32,000 nt of DNA from Vibrio vulnificus CMCP6 (lineage in GTDB: Bacteria; Pseudomonadota; Gammaproteobacteria; Enterobacterales; Vibrionaceae): the NCBI RefSeq assembly GCF_000039765.1, contig NC_004460.2:1290001-1322000 (forward strand), read 5' to 3'. Shown here piece by piece: positions 4,861 through 17,337 of this stretch. Under the pieces are notes generated by a model that did not search any database, was not told the origin of the DNA, and saw only the letters and a program-made list of their open reading frames with translations. Positions within the stretch are counted from its first letter, which is position 1, and each line of letters starts with the position of its first letter. The position numbers were made by a program, and so were the translations under genes.

Positions 4861-6087
4861 ATGAATCATTTAATCACAGTCGGTGCACTGGAATCTTTTT
4901 TAGTGGCGATTAGCGTGCTGTTTTTAGGGCATTTTATTAATGCCAAACTCCCCATCCTAAGAAAATTCAATATTCCCGAACCCATTGTTGGTGGTTTGAT
5001 TGTCGCCTGTATCATTACGATTTTGCATTTCCGTGGCATCGATTTGGAATTCAACTTGCCCTTGCAAAATACCTTTATGCTGATGTTTTTCTCGACGGTG
5101 GGTTTGGCGGCAAACTACACTCAATTGCTCAAAGGTGGCGCCAAAGTGTTCCTGTTTTTGGCGGTGGCGTCGGTGTACATCGTGATTCAAAATGGCGTTG
5201 GTGTTTCGCTGGCGAGTATGCTGGGCTTGGATCCGTTAATGGGCCTTATCGCGGGCTCCATTACGCTTTCCGGGGGTCATGGAACTGGCGCGGCATGGTC
5301 GCAAACGTTCGCAGATAACTATGGTATGTCCAACACGCTTGAAATCGCGATGGCCTCTGCGACGTTCGGTTTGATTATCGGCGGCCTGATTGGTAGCCCA
5401 GTGGCGCAGCGTTTGGTCGACAAGCACAACGTCGAGTCCGAGTATGGCCGAGGTTCAAAAACCCACGAAAAATTCCCTGAACTGGTGACTTACAACGAAT
5501 ACGAAGAGGATAAGGTGACGGCAAAGAAAGTGATTGAGAAGCTGTTCTTCCTGATCATTTGTGTGACCGGCGCCAAGTACGTTGAACAGTGGGTCAGCAC
5601 CTATGAAATCAAATGGTTGATGATTCCAGACTTTGTCTATGCGCTGTTTATCGGTGTCATCATCACCAACTTCCTTGAAGTGACGAAAATCCGTAAGTTA
5701 GACGCTGAAACCGTCGATATGCTCGGTACGGTGTCGTTGTCGCTGTTTTTGGCGATGGCGCTAATGAGTTTGAAGCTGTGGAACATCTTCGATCTGGCGA
5801 TTCCATTCTTGGTGATCTTAGCGGTGCAATCGGTGGTGTTGGCGCTGTTTACTTACTATGTGACGTTTAAAGTGATGGGCAGCAACTATGACGCGGCAGT
5901 CATTGCTGGTGGCCATTGTGGTTTTGGCCTAGGTGCGACGCCAACTGCAGTGATGAACATGGGGTCAATCGTGAATCGTTTTGGCCCTTCGCCTCAGGCC
6001 TTTATGGTGGTGCCGATAGTGGGGGCGTTTTTTATCGATATCGTCAACTTAATTGTCTTACAGGGCTTTATCTCCTTTATGGGGTAA
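4861..6087 (+). CDS. gltS: Sodium/glutamate symporter GltS (copy 1)
   Basis: 408 aa and polytopic. It is collinear with E. coli GltS as recalled (NIPEPIVGGL, GSITLSGGHGTGAAW, GHCGFGLGATPTAVMNM, FGPSPQAF..VPIVGAFFID). Confidence 0.93.
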   Translation: MNHLITVGALESFLVAISVLFLGHFINAKLPILRKFNIPEPIVGGLIVACIITILHFRGIDLEFNLPLQNTFMLMFFSTVGLAANYTQLLKGGAKVFLFLAVASVYIVIQNGVGVSLASMLGLDPLMGLIAGSITLSGGHGTGAAWSQTFADNYGMSNTLEIAMASATFGLIIGGLIGSPVAQRLVDKHNVESEYGRGSKTHEKFPELVTYNEYEEDKVTAKKVIEKLFFLIICVTGAKYVEQWVSTYEIKWLMIPDFVYALFIGVIITNFLEVTKIRKLDAETVDMLGTVSLSLFLAMALMSLKLWNIFDLAIPFLVILAVQSVVLALFTYYVTFKVMGSNYDAAVIAGGHCGFGLGATPTAVMNMGSIVNRFGPSPQAFMVVPIVGAFFIDIVNLIVLQGFISFMG

Positions 6088-6149: not shown

Positions 6150-6547
6150 GATACTGTTTGACCTCTCTTGCCTTGACGATAATGGCCATGGGCGAGTCTT
6201 GCTCACCATATTCACTCAATAGAAATTTATATTTCTCACATGGTGAGATAATAAGTCAGTAATCTGTCACTTATTCTTATTAATTGAGAATTTAAAGGGA
6301 ATGGTTCAGTGACATTTGATTTCATCGCGGCACACTGGCTCCTCATTGAAAAACGCACGTAGTTTCGTTCACTACCACTCGGGATAGCCTAATACTCTCT
6401 CAACCCTCTTGCTGCGTGTATCGTGGTACCACAGTGCGCTGTGCCTTAATAAGCAGGGCTTTGAGAGAAAAACGCCAATTTGCAGCAGCCGTTCTGCACT
6501 CGAGTTGCGGTGAGCGACGTTACTCATGCCACAACAATAGAGGTTTT

Positions 6548-7774
6548 ATGAACAGTGTTGTATCTGTTGGTCCGCAGGAGTCCTTTCTCATCGCCGTTGG
6601 CGTGCTATTTTTGGGTCACTTTATTAATGGCCAAATTCCGATCCTCAAACGTTTTAATATCCCAGAGCCGATTGTCGGCGGCTTAGTGGTGGCCTTGGTG
6701 ATCACCCTTGCCCACTTTAATGGCATCACTTTTGACTTTGACTTACCGTTGCAAAAAACGTTTATGTTGATGTTTTTTGCTACGGTGGGTTTGGCTGCCA
6801 ACTACAAACAATTGCTCAAAGGTGGCGTGAAGGTCCTGCTGTTTTTACTGATTGCGTCGATATACATCGTGGTGCAAAACGGCATTGGCGTCTCGCTGGC
6901 GAGTATGCTTGGTCTTGACCCCTTACTTGGGCTGATTGCTGGCTCCATCACGCTCTCTGGCGGTCATGGAACCGGAGCAGCATGGTCGCATACCTTTACG
7001 CAAAACTATGGGTTAGAGAATGCCTTAGAAATCGCGATGGCCTCTGCCACGTTTGGTTTAGTGATGGGCGGGATCTTGGGCAGCCCAGTGGCGCAGCGTC
7101 TGGTGGACAAACACCAATTGGAATCTGAATACGGTCGAGAATTGCAAGCCCACCAACGTTTTGCTGATTTGGTCACTTACAATGAAAATGAAGAAGACAA
7201 AGTCACGGCTAAGAAGGTGATTGAAAGCTTGGCGCTGATGTTTCTGTGTGTGATTGGCGCGCGCTACCTCTCTCAATGGGTCAATCAATTAGACATTGCT
7301 TGGTTGATGATCCCCGATTTTGTTTACGCGCTGCTGCTGGGAGTGTTTGTAACTAACTTCCTTGAACTCACCAAAGTGAGAAAGTTGGATTTAGAAACGG
7401 TGGATATGCTCGGCACCGTTTCGCTCTCACTGTTTTTGGCCATGGCATTGATGAGCTTAAAACTGTGGAATATTTTTGATTTGGCGCTGCCATTTCTGTT
7501 TATTTTGTCTATTCAATCGTTGGTGATGGTGCTGTTTAGCTACTTCGTGACGTTTAAAGTGATGGGACGAAACTACGACAGTGCGGTGATCGCCAGCGGT
7601 CATTGTGGTTTTGGTTTGGGCGCGACCCCCACCGCTGTGATGAACATGGGGTCGATTGTGAATCGCTTTGGCCCTTCTCCGCAGGCGTTTTTAGTGGTGC
7701 CTATTGTCGGCGCGTTTTTTATCGATTTAGTCAATATGCTGATATTACAAGGCTTTATCGCTTTTCTTGGGTAA
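6548..7774 (+). CDS. gltS: Sodium/glutamate symporter GltS (copy 2, tandem paralog)
   Basis: ATG at 6548 (MNSVVSVGPQESF...) has SD AGAGG 5 nt upstream and gives 408 aa, the same length as copy 1 and collinear with it without gaps. The 6416 start in the ORF track adds a non-homologous 44-aa extension. Confidence 0.9.
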   Translation: MNSVVSVGPQESFLIAVGVLFLGHFINGQIPILKRFNIPEPIVGGLVVALVITLAHFNGITFDFDLPLQKTFMLMFFATVGLAANYKQLLKGGVKVLLFLLIASIYIVVQNGIGVSLASMLGLDPLLGLIAGSITLSGGHGTGAAWSHTFTQNYGLENALEIAMASATFGLVMGGILGSPVAQRLVDKHQLESEYGRELQAHQRFADLVTYNENEEDKVTAKKVIESLALMFLCVIGARYLSQWVNQLDIAWLMIPDFVYALLLGVFVTNFLELTKVRKLDLETVDMLGTVSLSLFLAMALMSLKLWNIFDLALPFLFILSIQSLVMVLFSYFVTFKVMGRNYDSAVIASGHCGFGLGATPTAVMNMGSIVNRFGPSPQAFLVVPIVGAFFIDLVNMLILQGFIAFLG

Positions 7775-7929: not shown

Positions 7930-8796
7930 ATGACGGACAAAATCTCAACGACGGCATTGGCAAAAATGCGCAACATTGAAGCCTCTCAACTGTTTACCGA
8001 TTTGAGCCGTGCTGGTTACATCAGCCGAGTGGGCGATAAATGGATTCTCACCGAATTGGGCGCGCGGTTTGGCGGCGAATATGTTGACCATACGAAATTT
8101 GGCCAGTTCATTGTCTGGCCTGTGAACTTGCATGTTGAGTTGACCTCTACTCAAGGCAAGTTATTGAGTGCGACGCAAATCGGCGAGCTGCTTGGGCTTA
8201 ATGCCAAAAAGATGAACCAGTTGCTCAGTGAAATGGGCTGGATGGCCAAAACTGAGCGTGGTTGGGAAGTGACCGAATCGGGCATTCGTGCTGGTGGTAA
8301 ACAAAAAGGTGATGGTGAGGAGAAGCCATACTATTTGTTGTGGCATGATTCGATTACACGCAACAAACGCCTCAAGCAATCGGTGGTGGAGTTCTTGGGG
8401 CAAGACGCGGAAGTGCATGCGACGGATAAGTCATTTTCCAGTTTCCGACAGAAATTTGAGGCGAAACACCGCACCTTAGATGGCCACTATGTGCGCTCTA
8501 AAGGAGAGTTGTTGATCGACAATTGGCTGTATTTAGCTGGTGTTGCTCATGCTTACGGGCGGCAGTTACCGATTGAAGAAGAGATCATCAGTGATTTTTA
8601 TTTGCCTGCTGGCAAAGTCTATTTGCAGTTCTGGGGTAGCGATAACGGTGGAACACCAGAGGCGAATAAAGCCAAGATTCGCGCGGTGTATCAAGCGCAT
8701 CATTTCCATCTGATTGAAGTTGAGCAAGACGAGCTGGAAAGCCTGGATGAGGTGTTGCCGCAGCGTTTAAGGCCATTTGGCATCAAAGCGTATTAG
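7930..8796 (+). CDS. Hypothetical protein: two tandem winged-helix-like repeats plus a C-terminal PD-(D/E)xK-nuclease-like fold with apparently substituted catalytic residues
   Basis: Strong SD (AAGGAGG, 6 nt before the ATG). There is an internal repeat between aa 5-65 and aa 79-140 (shared pattern S.T.....L.......LS..G.......W..TE.G.R.GG ... W). The C-terminal block is HYVRSKGELLIDNWLY..SDFYLP..VYLQFWG. The bidirectional terminator at 8846-8878 follows. Confidence 0.75.
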   Translation: MTDKISTTALAKMRNIEASQLFTDLSRAGYISRVGDKWILTELGARFGGEYVDHTKFGQFIVWPVNLHVELTSTQGKLLSATQIGELLGLNAKKMNQLLSEMGWMAKTERGWEVTESGIRAGGKQKGDGEEKPYYLLWHDSITRNKRLKQSVVEFLGQDAEVHATDKSFSSFRQKFEAKHRTLDGHYVRSKGELLIDNWLYLAGVAHAYGRQLPIEEEIISDFYLPAGKVYLQFWGSDNGGTPEANKAKIRAVYQAHHFHLIEVEQDELESLDEVLPQRLRPFGIKAY

Positions 8797-10274: not shown

Positions 10275-10336
10275 AGCGTGCCCCACCAGTTAAGGCTAAT
10301 TACCTCTATTTTGATGCACTTGTTTCGGCAAGTGCG

Positions 10337-12340
10337 TCAGTGTTTTAGAGATCGAATCAAATAAGCGAGTGTCGGCTCAATGTCACCTTGATGTTGAGGG
10401 ATGCGATGACGTGGTTGAGTTAGCCATCCACGTTCAACCAATTCGTCAATCAGATCTAAGTAACGATGGCTGCATTTTCCAATCATGAGGTTGTCTAGGC
10501 TGCGCTGTTTGCTGAGATCCAGCATGGCTAAGAAGCCTTTGAGATACACATAGTCTTTTGTGAAGCCACCACCGCGGTAAACGCGAGTTGTGATGATGAA
10601 GGCATCGTCCCTTTCTAGCTGGAGCTCATCAGTTAAAAAACAAAAAGTCTGGTAGAAGTTGTGCTCTTTGAGTAAGGAATCCACCGCCAGCACTCGAACG
10701 GCTAAGGCTTGTAAGCGAGCATGGGACAGGTATCCAGAGTGGTACTCCGCCATGATCGCCAAACCTTCCTGTGTCAAGGTGTCGCCTGGTAGACCGAGTC
10801 GAAACACTTGCAATGGCTGCATTTTGGCATTGAAGGTGGTGGCCATATGCACACCAAGTTCATGTTGGATCAGGCGTCTCAGTTCCGTATCGTGAAAAGT
10901 GACCTTGCCATTTAAAAGGAGCGTCGGGGGATTTGAACTGACCATGGCGCGTGCCGCCAAGGAAGAGGACAAACTCACTTTACAAGGCATCTCCCACCCT
11001 TTTGTGGCCTGTTGCATCTGCGTTTGTGCTTGCTGTGCAGTAAAAAGTGCCCCGTGTTCTTCATCGAGTGTCTGCGCGTAGAGAAGAAACTGAGCGTTGC
11101 TGATATCGACGCCGTCGGGACGACCGTAATGACGTAACGAGTTATAGAGAAATGCCTCTTGCCCCACGCTGGTTAGCAGGTCAATTTTCTCACTCAAATT
11201 ATTCACCATATCGCTGTAGAGCTGGCGCATATCAGGATCGGCGATGGTTTCGATCGGAAAACGATAAAGCTGATGTTTGAACTCGTTGGCATGGATAGGC
11301 AGCTGGCGATAGCGATAGTCTGGAGTATAGCGATTGGGGGCCGCTTCAAAGCGTTTTCGTTCGGCGGTTAAATTGGTTGGGTTAACGTATTTAAGCGTTT
11401 CAACCTTATTGGCCAGTTTGTAGAGCGCTTTATCCACGGCCAGTACCGCAGGCTCGATCGATGAGCTCAGCATATCGGCTTTGCTGACCGAGCGGCGGCG
11501 ATTGAATTTGCGTTGAAAAAAGGCACTGGTTTGGCTAAAGGCTTCTTTCAAACCGGATTGCAACGCCTCGAGGACCAAAGGAAACAGCGTGCCGCTCTCC
11601 TCTTCCATAAAAACTTTCTTCACCTCGGTAGGCAGTACTAAGGTGCGATCAAAGTGTGCGTTCGTGTGGGCAATTAAGTAGCCTCGGCCTTCAAATACGG
11701 CGTTGACTTGCGCTGTGGCGGCGAGGTTAGGTAGCGCAATGCTTTGCAATTCTGCGCAAAAACGTTTCACCACCGATTGCCAGCGTTCTATATCAATTTG
11801 TGCGGTGCCGATGTTGAATACTGGCGCGTCTGCTTGTTGCCGCTTGTAGTTGTAAGAGTGAACATCAAACACCAGTACCATACCGTGCAGCGATTCGAGT
11901 TTGGCGATCAATGCTTCATAAAGTTGATAAAAAGCCGCGTGTTTTTGATGACTTCGGTTGCGCTGCTGATTGCTGAGAGGTTTCTTCCACACCTGCACAT
12001 CCCAAGCCGATTTGTAGTATGTGCTTAGCGTCATGGCTCGATTGAGATCGTACTCAAAACGCGAATCAAGGCCGATCAGCACAATCGGTTGTGACATGAT
12101 CATGTCATCGGTGTAGGGATCTTCTTCGAATAAGCGTTCACTGTCGCTAAGTAAGCACTGGTTGGTCAAATCGCTTCTTAACCGATGTCCGGCGTGAATG
12201 GCGGTACATACCACAGGTAGGTATTCATCGATTTTGATGAAGCAGCCTCCCTCCACCAACTCGCCTGAAAATGGCTGCCCTCGTTTGATCATCGAGAGCA
12301 TCTCTTCTAATGCGTATTGGTTATGGGTCGATGTGAGCAT
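10337..12340 (-). CDS. Two-domain hydrolase: N-formylglutamate-amidohydrolase-like N-half fused to a QEGLA-motif / DUF1704 (MATCAP-like, HExxxH) C-half
   Basis: The N-half has FGase-family motifs (IHAGH, DSRFEYDLNR, VFDVHSYN). The C-half has HELGVH at 10847-10864 and QEGLA at 10757-10771; both were checked against the nucleotide sequence. The start is ambiguous: ATG 12340 overlaps the upstream gene by 20 nt, and ATG 12301 is the alternative. The track start at 12412 lies deep inside the upstream gene. Confidence 0.85.
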   Translation of the reverse strand: MLTSTHNQYALEEMLSMIKRGQPFSGELVEGGCFIKIDEYLPVVCTAIHAGHRLRSDLTNQCLLSDSERLFEEDPYTDDMIMSQPIVLIGLDSRFEYDLNRAMTLSTYYKSAWDVQVWKKPLSNQQRNRSHQKHAAFYQLYEALIAKLESLHGMVLVFDVHSYNYKRQQADAPVFNIGTAQIDIERWQSVVKRFCAELQSIALPNLAATAQVNAVFEGRGYLIAHTNAHFDRTLVLPTEVKKVFMEEESGTLFPLVLEALQSGLKEAFSQTSAFFQRKFNRRRSVSKADMLSSSIEPAVLAVDKALYKLANKVETLKYVNPTNLTAERKRFEAAPNRYTPDYRYRQLPIHANEFKHQLYRFPIETIADPDMRQLYSDMVNNLSEKIDLLTSVGQEAFLYNSLRHYGRPDGVDISNAQFLLYAQTLDEEHGALFTAQQAQTQMQQATKGWEMPCKVSLSSSLAARAMVSSNPPTLLLNGKVTFHDTELRRLIQHELGVHMATTFNAKMQPLQVFRLGLPGDTLTQEGLAIMAEYHSGYLSHARLQALAVRVLAVDSLLKEHNFYQTFCFLTDELQLERDDAFIITTRVYRGGGFTKDYVYLKGFLAMLDLSKQRSLDNLMIGKCSHRYLDLIDELVERGWLTQPRHRIPQHQGDIEPTLAYLIRSLKH

Positions 12341-13361
12341 TTTGTACCGCCGTGCGGAAAGCGCTCTTACGCTGCTGGAGGAGTTCTTTGGAATTGACGA
12401 TGTTTTCAACAAAATCTATCACCTGGCGCTGCAAGCGTACTCGGTTGAGTTTGTTGATTCGGGTAATACCGCCTGGGCTCAGTACATTCACCTCAACCAG
12501 CTTATTGCCGATCACATCAAGACCAGTGAAATAGAGGCCATCTCGCACTAATTTGGGGCCAATAGCTGCGCACAAGCGTCGCTCTTCTTTGGTGAGAGTG
12601 TGCTTAATGACTGACCCTCCTGCGTGCACGTTTGAACGAAACTCGCCCTTGGCCGGAATCCGCGCCATTGCACCAATAGGCTCACCATTGAGCATCAAAA
12701 TGCGTTTGTCGCCTTCCTCGGCACCTTCAATGTAATCTTGCAAAATCACATAGTTACTTTGTTCGCCTTCCCCAATATAGAAATCGAGGAGTGAACGGAA
12801 GTTCTGTTGTGCATTTTTCTCAATCACAATCACACCATGCCCACCAAAGCCATTGAGCGGTTTGAGGATCATCTTCTCGCTCTGGGACTCTTCCAAAACG
12901 CGTTGCAGATACTCTCGATTTTTTGAGACATGGGTAGAAGGGAGAAACTCGCTGGCTGTGCCGCCCATACTGGCGGTGTAGAGCTTGTTATTAGCGATAC
13001 GTAGGCCTTCAAGGTCGTTGATGATCAGCGTATCGTCTTTGATGGAATCGAGGAAATTCAGGGCAAGATTGTCTAAAGGAGGATTCGCCCGCATGAAAAT
13101 AACGTCAAAACCCGCCATAGGGAGGCAGGCTTTTTGAAATTCGGCCTGACGATAAAAAGTCGGTACCTTGTCTGAAATTCGCAGTCCTTTTTTCAGGACC
13201 TGACAGAAACCAAATACGTTACTGTCTCTAATGGTCAATCCGCTCGTTGTTGTAATGGCAACCGTGTGGCCTCTTAATGCGCACTCATGAATGAGGCGTA
13301 AGGTGGTGTCCGTTTCAGGACAAACACGATCCCATGGATACATCAAAAAGCAGATATGCAT
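12321..13361 (-). CDS. ATP-grasp ligase of the glutathione-synthetase (GshB) type, paralog
   Basis: 346 aa, collinear with E. coli GshB as recalled (ILKPLNGFGGHG, GDKRILMLNGEPIGAMARIPAKGEFRSNVHAGG, IGPKLVRDGLYFTGLDVIG.KLVEVNVLSPGG). Its ATG shares one base with the stop of the upstream gene (TAATG, 13359-13363). SD GAGGA lies 6 nt upstream. Confidence 0.9.
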   Translation of the reverse strand: MHICFLMYPWDRVCPETDTTLRLIHECALRGHTVAITTTSGLTIRDSNVFGFCQVLKKGLRISDKVPTFYRQAEFQKACLPMAGFDVIFMRANPPLDNLALNFLDSIKDDTLIINDLEGLRIANNKLYTASMGGTASEFLPSTHVSKNREYLQRVLEESQSEKMILKPLNGFGGHGVIVIEKNAQQNFRSLLDFYIGEGEQSNYVILQDYIEGAEEGDKRILMLNGEPIGAMARIPAKGEFRSNVHAGGSVIKHTLTKEERRLCAAIGPKLVRDGLYFTGLDVIGNKLVEVNVLSPGGITRINKLNRVRLQRQVIDFVENIVNSKELLQQRKSAFRTAVQNAHIDP

Positions 13362-13720
13362 TAATCGTCCTCAGTTAGGCTTGCGTCTTCCTCAACGTAG
13401 TCATCGTTTGCGTCTGGTTTATTGCGTCCGTTAAGAGTATGGAAGCGCTTGCGACCACGTGCAAGGCGGATGTATTTCAACCAAGTACGTTCCACTTTGT
13501 TTTGTGCCGCTTCTGGTGTTTCTAGCGTCAGCAAAAAGTGTTTTTCATCTTCATTTTCTGGAGTCAATTGACCGGTCTCTAGACCGACCAAGGTGTCTCC
13601 ATAAATCATTAGGATTTCCTCTTCTGCAAGAGTAAAATCACCTGACTTTGCAAATCCGCGTGGAAATTTTGCGTTATCGAAAAATCGTTTTTTGCCATGA
13701 CGAATAGTCGTGTCAGACAT
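13361..13720 (-). CDS. DUF413 / MaoP (YifE)-like protein with an acidic C-terminal tail
   Basis: 119 aa with the family pattern FFDNAKFPRGFAKSGDFT...E..WLKY......RKRFHTLNG, as in E. coli YifE (recalled). It is divergent from an HdfR-like LysR gene, as in E. coli. The C-terminus is DANDDYVEEDASLTEDD. Confidence 0.85.
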   Translation of the reverse strand: MSDTTIRHGKKRFFDNAKFPRGFAKSGDFTLAEEEILMIYGDTLVGLETGQLTPENEDEKHFLLTLETPEAAQNKVERTWLKYIRLARGRKRFHTLNGRNKPDANDDYVEEDASLTEDD

Positions 13721-13869
13721 ATCAAACAGCCTCTGTAACCGTGATAGATGAATAATGATGATTTACGGCGAAAGTTAGGCGCAAAGTTAGCAAAAGAAAA
13801 ACAAAAGTTTTCTATCGATATGATAGGTATTTGTTGTTAATCTGGTGGCGATAAACCAGGAGATGTCTA

Positions 13870-14769
13870 ATGGACGTAAAGGTCTTTCGTACTTTTTTAG
13901 AATTGGCTAATGTTCGTCATTTTGGACGTGCAGCTGAGAATTTATACATTACCCAAGCCGCGGTCAGCGCGCGCATCAAACAGCTAGAAAGCTACTTCGA
14001 TGTTGAGCTTTTTATTCGTGATCGCAACAACATCAAACTCACATCGGCAGGTGAGCGTTTAGTGGGTTACGCAGAAGTGATGGTGTCCACATTGCAGCAG
14101 GCGAAACTTGAACTTTCGATGCAAGATGGCCGTGCCTTGCAACTGACGTTGGGCGGAACGCCAAATGTGTGGGATGCCTATCTGCAAAACTGTTTAAGCG
14201 TGGTGACTGATTCGTTCAGTGGCTACGGTTTTAATGCGGAAGTGATGGGGCGAGAACTGCTGACACGTGGCCTGCAAGAGCGCACGTTAGACATGGCATT
14301 CGCGTTTGATCAAATCAAAGCAGATGAGTTTTCTTGCAAGAAAGTGGCCGATTTGGTGTTGGTGATGGTGTCCACTGAAGCTGCAAGCAAAGACAGCGTC
14401 TTTGAGGGTAAATACGTCTACATTGATTGGGGAACCAAGTTTGCTTCTGAGCATGCTGAGCGTCACCAGAAACACCTAGCGCCCTATCTCAGAACGTCGA
14501 CTGCGCGTATTGCACTCGATTTCATTTTAGAAAAAGGTGGAAGTGCTTACTTACCAGCTTCGATAGCCCAGCCGTACCTTTCTTCGGGGCAGTTGCATCG
14601 AGTAGAAGGGGTCGATGAATGGAATCGTCCTATTTATTTAAGCTACCGCAAAGCCAGCACCTCGATTGATGCCATTCGTCAGGTGGAAGAATTGGTTAAG
14701 ATGATTGACCCGCTGGCCAGCTACCAAGTGCAACAGGCGATCGATTTGTCGTTAACTCAAAACGGTTAA
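13870..14769 (+). CDS. hdfR: LysR-family transcriptional regulator, HdfR-like
   Basis: The N-terminal HTH closely matches E. coli HdfR as recalled (RHFGRAAENLYITQAAVSARIKQLE...LFIRDRNNIKLTSAGERL..YAE). It is divergent from the DUF413 gene. SD AGGAG lies 7 nt upstream. Confidence 0.8.
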   Translation: MDVKVFRTFLELANVRHFGRAAENLYITQAAVSARIKQLESYFDVELFIRDRNNIKLTSAGERLVGYAEVMVSTLQQAKLELSMQDGRALQLTLGGTPNVWDAYLQNCLSVVTDSFSGYGFNAEVMGRELLTRGLQERTLDMAFAFDQIKADEFSCKKVADLVLVMVSTEAASKDSVFEGKYVYIDWGTKFASEHAERHQKHLAPYLRTSTARIALDFILEKGGSAYLPASIAQPYLSSGQLHRVEGVDEWNRPIYLSYRKASTSIDAIRQVEELVKMIDPLASYQVQQAIDLSLTQNG

Positions 14770-15094: not shown

Positions 15095-15464
15095 AGCCTC
15101 TTCCTTATTCGTTATGTCTGACGTTGTTGACCACTGGTGAGGGTGGCTACTTTTTAAATTAGTTTAAATTGTGAGAATTGCCAAAAATTATACACAACGC
15201 AATATTGCAATCCGATGCAGAGGCTGGGTTGAGGCTGGAAATTGGGATTGAGTTCCGAAAATGGCGAGTTATTATCGAGGTTATTGTTACAATTTCACTC
15301 ATATCTCCCATCGTTTTGGCTTTGCCAATCCGTTGGTTACCAAACACACAGCGAGCGATTGCCAGTGTGAGGCATGGGGATACGCTAACGCTTGATAGAG
15401 CGACATGATTGAGGTGGAACAGGGCTGCGGTTCCCCCATTTTCCCGTCAAACAAGGATTTTTCT

Positions 15465-16850
15465 ATGGCCATTTTAAACTACTCATCGCTCACGACAGAG
15501 CAATGTCAACAAGCAAGGATGGCCCGAGATAGTCGCTTTGATGGGCTGTTTTATGTGGCGGTCAAAAGCACTGGGATTTTCTGCCGGCCTGTATGTCCTG
15601 CCAATTTACCCAAAGAAGAGAACGTGGAGTATTACCACGATAAAGCGCAAGCCTTGTCGGCTGGCTATCGCCCATGTTTGCGTTGTCGCCCCGACAGCGC
15701 GCCTGATTCTTGGGCGTGGAAAGGGGTCGAAACCACATTTCAACGTGCGTTGACCTTGATTGAACAAGGGGCGCTACAAACGGAGAGGTTGTCAGCTTTG
15801 GCGCAACGTTTAGGAGTGAGCGATCGCTATATTCGTCAATTATTTCGCCGGTATTTGGGGATCTCTCCGAAGCAATATGCTCAGTCTCAGCAGTTGTTGT
15901 TTGCCAAACAGTTGCTGCATGGTAGCTCATTGAGCGTTACCGAAATTGGCTTTGCTTCCGGCTTTAACAGTACTCGCCGTTTTAATGATGCGTTTCAAAA
16001 GTCGATGGGTATGCCCCCTTCGAAAATCCGTCGAAGTAAAGGGGGGGCGAGTCACGATCAGTCGCATATTGTGCTCGCGTTTCGCGGTGATTTGAACGTA
16101 AAACACATGCTGGATTTTTATCGGCAGCGAGCGATTGAAGGCGTAGAGGTGGTGACGGAGACGAGTTATCAACGTCAAGTCGTGATCAACGGAAAAACGG
16201 TTGGGTTTCGCGCGGAATTTCCCGCAACATTTCCAGCAGAGAAGCGGCAGTTAGTGGTTTATTTTTCGATGGATGATCTGACGTTGTTGCGCCCGATGGT
16301 GGCTGGAATCAGGCGGATGTTCGATCTCGATTGCGACACGCGCGTGATTGAAGCCCATCTCAACACTGTAGCGCCTGGGTTGGTCAAAAGCGTTGGTATC
16401 CGGATTCCGGGTGTCTGGAGTGTTTGGGAAGCGGGCGTACGAGCGATTTTGGGCCAACAAGTCTCGGTCAAAGCCGCCATCGGACAACTGAATCTATTGG
16501 TCGCGACTTTACACCCCGATTCTGAAGTGCGCACTTTTCCTTCACCACAACAGGTGGTTGATGCGGATCTGCATTTCTTACGAATGCCACAAAGTCGAAA
16601 AGAAACCTTAAGACGTTTTGCTGCCATGATGCTGGAGAATGAACACGCCGATCCCAATCAATGGTTGGCGTTAAAAGGCATTGGGCCGTGGACGGTCAGT
16701 TACGCCCAATTGCGAGGCCTTTCGCAGCCAGACAGACTGCTAGAGAAGGATTTAGTGGTGAAAAAAGCACTGGCTCAGTTCCCCACTTTGAATCAAGAAA
16801 GCGCTTCACCTTGGGGGAGTTACGCAACTTTTCATCTATGGAATCAATAA
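15465..16850 (+). CDS. Ada N-terminal (Zn, methylphosphotriester-sensing) + AraC HTH + AlkA-type DNA-3-methyladenine glycosylase II fusion
   Basis: ATG at 15465 has SD AAGGA 7 nt upstream. The Ada_Zn block is FDGLFYVAVKSTGIFCRPVCPA...GYRPCLRCRP. An AraC HTH follows (RYIRQLFRRYLGISPKQY). The C-terminal half looks like AlkA_N plus a HhH-GPD glycosylase. Confidence 0.9.
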   Translation: MAILNYSSLTTEQCQQARMARDSRFDGLFYVAVKSTGIFCRPVCPANLPKEENVEYYHDKAQALSAGYRPCLRCRPDSAPDSWAWKGVETTFQRALTLIEQGALQTERLSALAQRLGVSDRYIRQLFRRYLGISPKQYAQSQQLLFAKQLLHGSSLSVTEIGFASGFNSTRRFNDAFQKSMGMPPSKIRRSKGGASHDQSHIVLAFRGDLNVKHMLDFYRQRAIEGVEVVTETSYQRQVVINGKTVGFRAEFPATFPAEKRQLVVYFSMDDLTLLRPMVAGIRRMFDLDCDTRVIEAHLNTVAPGLVKSVGIRIPGVWSVWEAGVRAILGQQVSVKAAIGQLNLLVATLHPDSEVRTFPSPQQVVDADLHFLRMPQSRKETLRRFAAMMLENEHADPNQWLALKGIGPWTVSYAQLRGLSQPDRLLEKDLVVKKALAQFPTLNQESASPWGSYATFHLWNQ

Positions 16851-16851
16851 C

Positions 16852-17337
16852 ATGAAATACTACACTCAATTTTCCAGCCCGTTTGGTCTTGTGACTGTTC
16901 AGGCCAACGATCAAGGTTTGCTCGGGATCTGGTTTGAACAACATACGACTTTACCAATGGAGTTAGGGTGTGACGCGGCTACGCATCCGGTGATCAGCGA
17001 AACTCGTCAACAGTTGGAGCAGTACTTTTCTGGCCAGCGACAACAGTTTGATCTGCCTTTGGCCGCGCAAGGCACCGAGTTTCAACAAAAAGTGTGGCAG
17101 GCACTGACCCAAATCCCTTATGGTCAAACCTGTAGCTATCAAGATTTGGCCAATGCCATTGGTAACCCTAAAGCGGTGAGAGCGGTGGGGCTGGCGAATG
17201 GTAAAAATCCGATTTCTATCGTCGTCCCTTGCCATCGAGTGATAGGCAAAAGCGGCAAGTTAACCGGATATGCTGGCGGTTTAGAGCGTAAACAGCAATT
17301 GCTGGCGTTGGAGTCAGGTGGTGAAATTTCACGCTGA
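16852..17337 (+). CDS. ogt: Methylated-DNA-protein-cysteine methyltransferase
   Basis: The active-site PCHRV is present (IVVPCHRVIG). The N-terminal Ada/Ogt ribonuclease-like domain is present. The ATG lies 1 nt after the upstream stop, so the two genes form an operon. Confidence 0.93.
   Translation: MKYYTQFSSPFGLVTVQANDQGLLGIWFEQHTTLPMELGCDAATHPVISETRQQLEQYFSGQRQQFDLPLAAQGTEFQQKVWQALTQIPYGQTCSYQDLANAIGNPKAVRAVGLANGKNPISIVVPCHRVIGKSGKLTGYAGGLERKQQLLALESGGEISR

Follow-up and report, generated by a model that had tools for sequence, protein, structure and literature searches.

A GshB-type ligase and an FGase-MATCAP fusion hydrolase encoded with maoP in Vibrio vulnificus: a possible module for ligation and hydrolysis of a small acidic peptide

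In this study, we analysed a stretch of 32,000 nucleotides from Vibrio vulnificus CMCP6 (contig NC_004460.2, positions 1,290,001 to 1,322,000; hereafter the window), which contains a minus-strand operon of three genes. A match of 99% identity agrees with the origin from V. vulnificus. These encode a small acidic protein assigned by its sequence to the MaoP (DUF413/YifE) family, an ATP-grasp ligase paralogous to the glutathione synthase GshB, and a bifunctional hydrolase in which a half resembling N-formylglutamate amidohydrolases (FGase) is fused to a MATCAP/QEGLA metallopeptidase half. Ligase and hydrolase form a cassette that recurs in many marine bacteria, often beside the genes for MaoP and the regulator HdfR. 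We tentatively propose that it may be an HdfR-linked, low-salt-induced module which ligates and hydrolyses bonds at the C-terminus of a small acidic peptide resembling glutathione. The object of interest is this cassette with its recurrent links to HdfR-MaoP and to low salinity, while MaoP as its substrate is a minority hypothesis.

Operon structure and conservation of the ligase-hydrolase pair

Neighbouring genes of the operon overlap at their ends (Table 1). The maoP stop codon TAA (13363-13361) and the ligase start codon ATG (13361-13359) have A13361 in common (TAATG), and the Shine-Dalgarno motif GAGGA is located 7 nt upstream of the ligase start. The hydrolase ATG at 12340 lies within the 3' end of the ligase gene, resulting in an overlap of 20 nt, and this start agrees with the N-termini of 19 homologues; wherever gene calls existed in relatives, ligase and hydrolase genes overlapped by 14-26 nt. 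Thereby, the gene borders given in a preliminary description of this DNA were confirmed, namely the overlapping stops and starts of three minus-strand genes and the hydrolase of 667 amino acids. A promoter scan of the three-gene block found no sigma-70-like promoter inside the operon. The description had also regarded the three genes as one operon, which is supported by the co-induction of the trio in Photobacterium damselae.

This co-induction was found in RNA-seq data comparing P. damselae at 1% and 3% NaCl, the operon having the same gene order as in V. vulnificus. At low salt, the DUF413 gene was induced 9.1-fold, the operon gene annotated as 'glutathione synthase' 38.4-fold, and the gene of the QEGLA protein 27.5-fold, while expression of hdfR decreased 2.3-fold and that of a canonical-length gshB on chromosome I (RS03915) 1.6-fold (PMC10308900). 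The co-induction supports one co-regulated operon and points to a role at low salinity. In the same comparison, the gene for RimK was among the most strongly induced genes (52-fold; PMC10308900). A gene beside hdfR for a hypothetical protein of 56 amino acids (A0J47_RS17005; NZ_CP070625.1, 556064-556234) was induced 18.6-fold together with the operon.

For the comparison of loci, we collected 11 loci from genomes, 80 from metagenomes and 9 contexts by look-up, and scored them by tblastn and clustering of open reading frames (ORFs). Loci were evaluable if the DNA upstream of the hydrolase gene extended over 1100 nt or more, which applied to 75 of them. The ligase gene was located immediately upstream of the hydrolase gene in 67 of them, so the association of these two genes held well beyond the window. 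For DUF413, which the preliminary description had counted as a member of the unit, the outcome was mixed: its gene adjoins the cassette in three gene orders, but is absent from 45 of the 75 loci, among them those of Piscirickettsia, Marinobacterium, Pseudoalteromonas and one metagenome-assembled genome labelled as cyanobacterial. Because all 45 loci without DUF413 carry the ligase-hydrolase pair, the conserved unit is this pair and not the trio.

DUF413 genes were found near the cassette in the remaining 30 loci, and genes of HdfR-like LysR-type regulators in about 30 of the 75. In Vibrio, Photobacterium, Shewanella and Ferrimonas, the LysR gene is divergent from the row DUF413-ligase-hydrolase. 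In nine metagenome loci, DUF413 is divergent from a LysR gene which is followed by a small ORF, the ligase and the hydrolase, and in a further locus (L008) DUF413 is divergent from ligase and hydrolase, with the LysR gene farther on in the direction of the latter two. The cassette thus stands beside hdfR-maoP in Vibrionales and Alteromonadales in several gene orders, and since the adjacency of hdfR-maoP survives rearrangement, a real link with the cassette, at least a regulatory one, can be assumed. Clustering of 775 ORFs from 98 loci yielded as recurrent neighbours only the ligase, LysR, DUF413 and a family designated c4.

The c4 family comprises unannotated, very acidic proteins of 80-95 amino acids with the common C-terminus ...KRNYLAKKKIEQLQEERRLKKxDDDYYGDWD; in nine loci (Table 1), their ORF separates the gene of the HdfR-like LysR from that of the ligase. 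Its only family match was to PA3496_fam below the threshold (20 bits, cutoff 22), and an informative publication on it was not found. No c4-like gene was found in the window. In Marinobacterium arenosum (locus L017, 8139-8648), a gene for a gamma-glutamyl cyclotransferase-like protein (GGACT/AIG2) directly follows the hydrolase gene on the same strand; this single neighbour hints at gamma-glutamyl chemistry.

Table 1. Positions of the operon genes and domains, of flanking elements, and of c4 ORFs. Positions refer to the window unless another locus is named.
Feature	Position	Strand	Size	Description
maoP (DUF413/YifE family)	13720..13361	minus	119 aa	CDS; tail DANDDYVEEDASLTEDD; PF04219, NF008252
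GshB-paralogue ATP-grasp ligase, PRK12458 subfamily	13361..12321	minus	346 aa	CDS; GSH-S_N + GSH-S_ATP
Bifunctional FGase-MATCAP hydrolase	12340..10337	minus	667 aa	CDS from ATG 12340
FGase-like half (N-formylglutamate amidohydrolase family)	11654..12217	minus	aa 42-229	PF05013
MATCAP/QEGLA metallopeptidase half	10388..11356	minus	aa 329-651	PF08014, TIGR02421
HdfR-like LysR-type regulator	13870..14769	plus		HTH_1 + LysR_substrate; divergent from operon
hdfR-maoP intergenic control region	13721..13869		149 bp	Conserved blocks TTTTGTTTTTCTTTT (13792-13806) and CTAACTTTCGCCGT (13765-13778)
Operon-end hairpin, also 3' of convergent DUF3081 gene	10311..10340		13-bp stem	Terminator scan
c4 ORF, locus L029	3558-3821			
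c4 ORF, locus L030	3587-3829			
c4 ORF, locus L031	3529-3771			
c4 ORF, locus L032	1830-2078			
c4 ORF, locus L033	3587-3835			
c4 ORF, locus L037	3434-3691			
c4 ORF, locus L039	3566-3829			
c4 ORF, locus L044	3541-3828			
c4 ORF, locus L045	2091-2333			
c4-like ORF, locus L008	8218-8081	minus		

Ligase and hydrolase and their families

The ligase had been described as an ATP-grasp enzyme of the GshB type, and profile hidden Markov models (HMMs) agree with this, matching GSH-S_N over its full length (PF02951, E 4.8e-22) and GSH-S_ATP (PF02955, E 9.6e-58). The best model is that of a separate subfamily, NF009110 (PRK12458), with a score of 484 (cutoff 408). The GshB equivalog model TIGR01380 scored 248.5, under its cutoff of 299.05, and the NCBIfam GshB model NF003573 scored 281.9, barely over its cutoff of 272. 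For the RimK family, scores were 80.7 for TIGR00768 (cutoff 143.4) and 51.4 for NF007764 (cutoff 331), so that among the RimK-type models only the generic RimK ATP-grasp Pfam domain matched; no TTL Pfam family was among the matches at E <= 0.01, and a cyanophycin synthetase model matched weakly. In pairwise comparison, the ligase is 31% identical to E. coli GshB (E 2.8e-37), and the match to RimK has an E value of about 1e-12.

With E. coli GshB (PDB 1GSA) the ligase shares the two-domain ATP-grasp architecture, the flexible loop, the Mg ligands, the glycine-rich loop (G171, G173, G174) and the catalytic arginines, R220, R234 and R242 being the equivalents of Arg210, Arg225 and Arg233 and invariant in 12 sequences including E. 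coli GshB. The roles of these arginines and of the glycine-rich loop we take to be those known from the E. coli literature. Unlike GshB, the operon ligases form the PRK12458/NF009110 subfamily, fail the TIGR01380 cutoff, carry their own helix-like C-terminal extension of about 25 amino acids, and are always encoded together with a hydrolase. Their identity amounts to 87-90% within Vibrio and 66-70% across orders. The operon ligase is probably not the housekeeping GshB: in P. damselae, which has the same trio, it is an extra paralogue beside a separate canonical-length gshB with the opposite regulation. Its annotation as 'glutathione synthase' is probably wrong, and this label has misled at least one transcriptome interpretation.

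For the hydrolase, the preliminary description had named motifs of an FGase-like N-terminal half fused to a half with HELGVH and QEGLA, and all of them were found again: DSRFEYDLNR comprises residues 92-101, VFDVHSYN residues 157-164, HELGVH residues 493-498 (nt 10847-10864), and QEGLA residues 524-528 (nt 10757-10771). Pfam HMMs recognise both halves, the FGase domain with E 1.5e-16 (61.6 bits, cutoff 28.9) and the MATCAP domain with E 2.4e-93 (313.5 bits, cutoff 27), and the 'QEGLA' model TIGR02421 scored 394.8 bits (cutoff 338.65). The full protein was modelled with AlphaFold2 (pLDDT 87.7, pTM 0.87), and the model was used for a fold search with Foldseek. As had been expected for the C-terminal half, it matches human MATCAP (7z5g/7z6s; E about 1e-9, target TM 0.69). 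The N-terminal half matches the FGase structures 2q7s (E 4e-9, TM 0.74) and 2odf (TM 0.66-0.71) and, weakly, the M14-type metallocarboxypeptidases 2c1c, 4b6z and 4a37. A search by sequence with the FGase half found no solved structure, so that these matches come from the fold search alone. From profiles and model, the hydrolase can be assigned to the MATCAP/TIGR02421 and the Pfam FGase families but not to HutG, whose equivalog model TIGR02017 scored 19.3, far under its cutoff of 278.75; there are also no hut genes near the operon in the window.

Across 20 homologues, H493, E494, H498, Q524, E525 and G526 of the MATCAP half are invariant, and a catalytic role of the motif glutamate is indicated by the E281A variant of TMCP1. 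Invariant residues of the FGase half include H49, D92, S93, R94, E96, Y97, D98, K133, H134, D159 and Y163. Among the 120 best homologues, which are about 660 aa long, almost every protein contains both domains, with two for which Pfam gives MATCAP alone, and the bacterial TIGR02421 family has more than 2000 representatives. Biochemical data on a bacterial MATCAP/QEGLA member, including a Tyr/Phe carboxypeptidase activity on acidic tails, were not found in the literature, nor could the origin of the name 'flavohemoglobin expression-modulating' be traced in the publications searched.

Two further types of protein are related to the fusion. A large class of MATCAP proteins of about 620 amino acids (P0417, P0418, P0421, P0431, P0443) has an N-terminal region of about 260 amino acids without a Pfam match. 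These proteins were considered as a second FGase fusion, which was rejected: the N-domain is not recognisably FGase, and hhalign aligns the linker only (probability 35%). In the loci L047 (3509-4959) and L049 (3614-4953), an additional FGase-only paralogue of 321-346 amino acids is encoded between the ligase and the full-length hydrolase, followed by a gene for a hydrophobic protein of 123-125 amino acids. The FGase-only gene looks like a local duplication splitting off the FGase half.

MaoP, HdfR and loci without the ligase

The DUF413 protein is, by sequence, MaoP/YifE, a member of a nucleoid-associated protein family: it matches PF04219 (E 4.6e-32, 110 bits) and NF008252 (179 bits, cutoff 135), is 38% identical to E. 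coli MaoP, and Vibrio orthologues bear the UniRef name 'Macrodomain Ori protein'. The divergent LysR-type regulator is encoded outside the interval of the preliminary description, and its best NCBIfam model is HdfR (NF002946) with 207.7 bits, under the cutoff of 240; over 277 aa, the regulator shares 37% identity with E. coli HdfR, and its P. damselae orthologue is annotated as HdfR by NCBI. It is also 80% identical to the syntenic LysR protein of V. parahaemolyticus, probably VPA0041, which was described as regulating lateral-flagellar swarming but was not recognised as the HdfR orthologue (PMC9029033).

Alignment of the hdfR-maoP intergenic regions revealed blocks common to Vibrio, Shewanella, Thaumasiovibrio and E. 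coli, one of which, CTAACTTTCGCCGT, aligns with E. coli maoS (CTAATACTCCGCGCCAT; PMC5023128). MaoP and maoS were described as organising the Ori macrodomain (PMC5023128). Deletion of maoS in Y. pestis abolished maoP expression, and in a study of 2026 HdfR was found to activate maoP in Yersinia, where MaoP is an abundant nucleoid-associated protein binding DNA without sequence specificity (PMC13627719). The locus in V. vulnificus thus resembles the HdfR-MaoP module of Enterobacterales in its divergent genes, its conserved intergenic block with a maoS-like sequence and its acidic MaoP tail; unlike in E. coli and Y. pestis, where maoP stands alone, an enzyme cassette is attached in V. vulnificus and in many Vibrionales and Alteromonadales.

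The long acidic tail reported for the small DUF413 protein is indeed present (it ends in DANDDYVEEDASLTEDD), but the further suggestion that this protein is the obvious candidate substrate of the enzymes was not supported. E. coli MaoP also ends in an acidic tail (...EDYTDSD), although E. coli has neither enzyme, and V. parahaemolyticus and V. splendidus have hdfR-maoP with the same acidic tail and neither enzyme. The extreme C-termini of ligase-adjacent DUF413 proteins vary (EDD, EEN, ENN, VEE, MEL, EVA, YDD, LEY), while the ligases beside them are 68-90% identical, and no covariation of the MaoP C-terminus with the presence of the enzymes was found among the compared loci. MaoP is therefore probably not a required substrate of the enzyme pair. 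That DUF413 is an orphan protein dedicated to this operon was rejected as well, as the hdfR-maoP locus persists without the enzymes.

One Vibrio locus, between the Ada/AlkA and DUF3081/nagB genes, exists in three states: maoP-ligase-hydrolase in V. vulnificus, maoP-hydrolase in V. cholerae, V. mimicus and V. metoecus, and maoP alone in V. parahaemolyticus and V. splendidus. The three states do not differ in the MaoP tail (...DDY...EED). Altogether, the hydrolase was kept and the ligase lost in eight loci (L005 of V. cholerae, L006, L011, L020, L021, L022, L023 and L069), corresponding to at least three losses: one in the cholerae clade, one in L069 and one in a lineage resembling Shewanella. 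This last lineage has the same flanks as the ligase-bearing S. psychrotolerans, and no V. cholerae orthologue was present among the 120 best ligase matches. In the V. cholerae locus (L005, 5920-6000), the ligase is cleanly absent, and a 79-bp spacer between maoP and the hydrolase gene contains a hairpin, GGGCTACA...TGTAGCCC (5933-5957).

The hydrolase is nevertheless very strongly constrained by purifying selection in the cholerae clade. Between V. cholerae and V. mimicus, its rates of nonsynonymous (pN) and synonymous (pS) differences are 0.011 and 0.645, giving a pN/pS of 0.017, alike in both halves and tighter than that of nagB (0.027), the LysR gene (0.067) and the DUF413 gene (0.107). Within Vibrio, hydrolase identity is 66-75%. 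Since the hydrolase is constrained without the ligase, the putative 'eraser' should have a function independent of this 'writer'. In the same species pair (L005/L011), the pS of maoP is 0.22, much lower than that of its neighbours (0.53-0.65), which could reflect codon bias of a highly expressed gene, RNA constraint or recent exchange.

Possible substrates and relation to known systems

In the proposed module, the ligase would use ATP to form an acyl-phosphate on the C-terminal carboxylate of an acidic acceptor of the Glu or gamma-Glu type and then add one amino acid. The MATCAP half would take this C-terminal residue off again, and the FGase half would then cut the newly exposed bond of the N-acyl-glutamate type. 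Together, both enzymes would control how much of a small glutathione-like peptide is present, with MaoP as a co-regulated operon partner and not an obligatory substrate. The hydrolase would also work on substrates not made by this ligase, which would explain its survival after ligase loss. A small peptide is favoured as substrate because the ligase, which is of the GshB type and has a complete GSH-S_N domain, is much nearer to GshB than to RimK, because FGase enzymes act on a small molecule, because the cassette is widespread without MaoP, and because the extreme C-terminus of MaoP varies beside near-identical ligases.

Several observations weigh against this proposal. The sole characterised enzymes of the MATCAP family act on protein tails, namely those of tubulin. 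DUF413 is located directly upstream of the hydrolase gene in all eight ligase-less loci, and two different small acidic proteins with aromatic tails, MaoP and c4, are encoded directly upstream of the ligase in different lineages. In 3 of 20 homologues, Y or K replaces H161 of the FGase half, so the catalytic status of this half is uncertain. Finally, a simple opposition of both enzymes on a dedicated metabolite predicts decay of the hydrolase after loss of the ligase, instead of the very strong constraint seen. Of the writer/eraser pairing put forward in the preliminary description, the combination of the ligase with an opposing carboxypeptidase-type hydrolase is thus still reasonable, but a strict dependence of one on the other does not fit the eight loci that retain the hydrolase alone.

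Alternatively, the hydrolase might trim the acidic, Tyr-containing tail of MaoP (or, in other lineages, of c4) and the ligase might re-extend it, thereby tuning DNA binding of MaoP with salinity as a bacterial analogue of RimK/RimB and of TTL/MATCAP/CCP. An encoded tail would explain the constraint on the hydrolase without the ligase and the DUF413-hydrolase adjacency in the eight ligase-less loci; the translational coupling of maoP and ligase, the position of hdfR-maoP beside the cassette in three gene orders, the c4 proteins (conserved tail ...DDYYGDWD) that are encoded immediately before the ligase in nine loci, and the co-induction of MaoP with the enzymes fit as well, as do the MATCAP-family enzymes acting on acidic tails and the bacterial precedent of RimABK. 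We nevertheless consider such an add-and-trim cycle unlikely: in 45 of the 75 loci, neither DUF413 nor c4 is found near the cassette, the same MaoP tail occurs in the enzyme-less V. parahaemolyticus, V. splendidus and E. coli, the C-terminal residues of ligase-adjacent MaoP are unconserved, and the ligase is nearer to the small-substrate enzyme GshB than to RimK and is outside the TTL family. In addition, MaoP of Y. pestis is functional with a C-terminal FLAG tag (PMC13627719). A still more doubtful extension is a general bacterial 'tail code', in which the fusion would trim acidic Tyr/Trp tails of small chromatin-type proteins such as MaoP and c4 and the ligase would rebuild them. If true, the activity of nucleoid proteins would be retuned as salinity falls, and the system would be a prokaryotic counterpart, possibly an ancestor, of the cycle of tubulin detyrosination, deglutamylation and re-ligation.

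The operon might instead serve plain glutathione (GSH) turnover, with a stress-inducible second glutathione synthetase, an enzyme degrading GSH or gamma-glutamyl peptides, and MaoP as a mere neighbour; in this case, only the peptidase families involved would be new. NCBI models call the ligase a glutathione synthase, with NF003573 passed, and glutaredoxin and glutathione S-transferase (GST) genes are located near some loci; the housekeeping GshB could feed the hydrolase in the ligase-less V. cholerae, which would explain its retention. FGase enzymes such as HutG, however, act on small N-acyl-glutamate and cleave the acyl-NH-Glu bond, not gamma-Glu-Cys, the TIGR01380 cutoff was failed by a subfamily with its own C-terminal extension and 66-70% identity across orders, and two genes so strictly paired and coupled in translation are suggestive of a dedicated substrate. 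This explanation seems about as improbable as the trimming of MaoP. Least plausible by far is that ligase and hydrolase are unrelated in function and reached the maoP operon by chance: the content of the Vibrio locus does vary between maoP alone, maoP with the hydrolase, and maoP with both, but the genes are co-induced and are adjacent with overlapping codons in 67 of the 75 loci, with unrelated flanks and in several orders.

Among known systems, the module proposed here shares its logic with RimK/RimA/RimB of Pseudomonas, in which an ATP-grasp ligase is paired with a trimming enzyme: RimK adds residues to the acidic C-terminus of RpsF (ribosomal protein S6), from which they are trimmed by a co-transcribed protease (PMC7343187, PMC11957791). 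It differs in that the ligase is GshB-type, with the TIGR00768 score well below the cutoff, and in that the eraser is a metallo-hydrolase fusion, whereas RimB is a retropepsin. The tubulin cycle of TTL/TTLL, MATCAP/TMCP and CCP likewise pairs a MATCAP-family peptidase with an ATP-grasp ligase. Because the FGase half has weak Foldseek matches to M14 enzymes and the CCP deglutamylases are M14 enzymes, the FGase-MATCAP fusion recalls a detyrosinase joined to a deglutamylase. Here, however, the ligase has no TTL domain and the substrate may be a small molecule, and bacteria, to our knowledge, have no tubulin tails. In glutathionylspermidine synthetase/amidase (Gss) and in cyanophycin synthetase/cyanophycinase, an ATP-grasp synthetase and an opposing hydrolase together regulate the amount of a small peptide or polymer; these systems belong to other domain families (CHAP amidase, S51 peptidase) and are likened to the operon by their logic.

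Elsewhere in the window, two tandem genes for sodium/glutamate symporters (GltS; 4861-6087 and 6416-7774, plus strand) are located 2.5-5 kb from the operon. Their nearness to a cassette putatively acting on Glu-containing peptides may be coincidental, because the enzyme-less V. parahaemolyticus has one GltS gene in the same synteny. A plus-strand gene at 7930-8796 encodes a protein of 288 amino acids with a weak match to the phage antirepressor domain KilAC (ANT), present at the same position in other Vibrio (L001, L100). On the other side, hdfR is flanked by an alkylation-repair pair kept in Vibrio synteny, consisting of an Ada(Zn)-AraC-AlkA fusion gene (15405-16850, plus strand) and, directly after it, an Ogt-type methyltransferase gene (16852-17337, plus strand).

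A function of bacterial QEGLA/MATCAP proteins or of the ligase-hydrolase pair was not described in any publication found, and the same is true for the trio, as the preliminary description had supposed. It was not until 2022-2023 that MATCAP/TMCP enzymes became known as carboxypeptidases of tubulin tails. For their large bacterial sister family TIGR02421, which bears an uninformative name, the locus provides a concrete starting point: nearly every bacterial enzyme carries a second, fused domain of the carboxypeptidase superfamily, its gene is coupled in translation to that of a putative C-terminal amino-acid ligase, and the unit as a whole is strongly induced at low salinity. In Yersinia, biofilm formation and immune resistance were recently found to be under the control of the HdfR-MaoP module, and the genomic tie of the cassette to this module suggests that HdfR may receive a metabolite signal from the enzymes or that MaoP may be modified by them.

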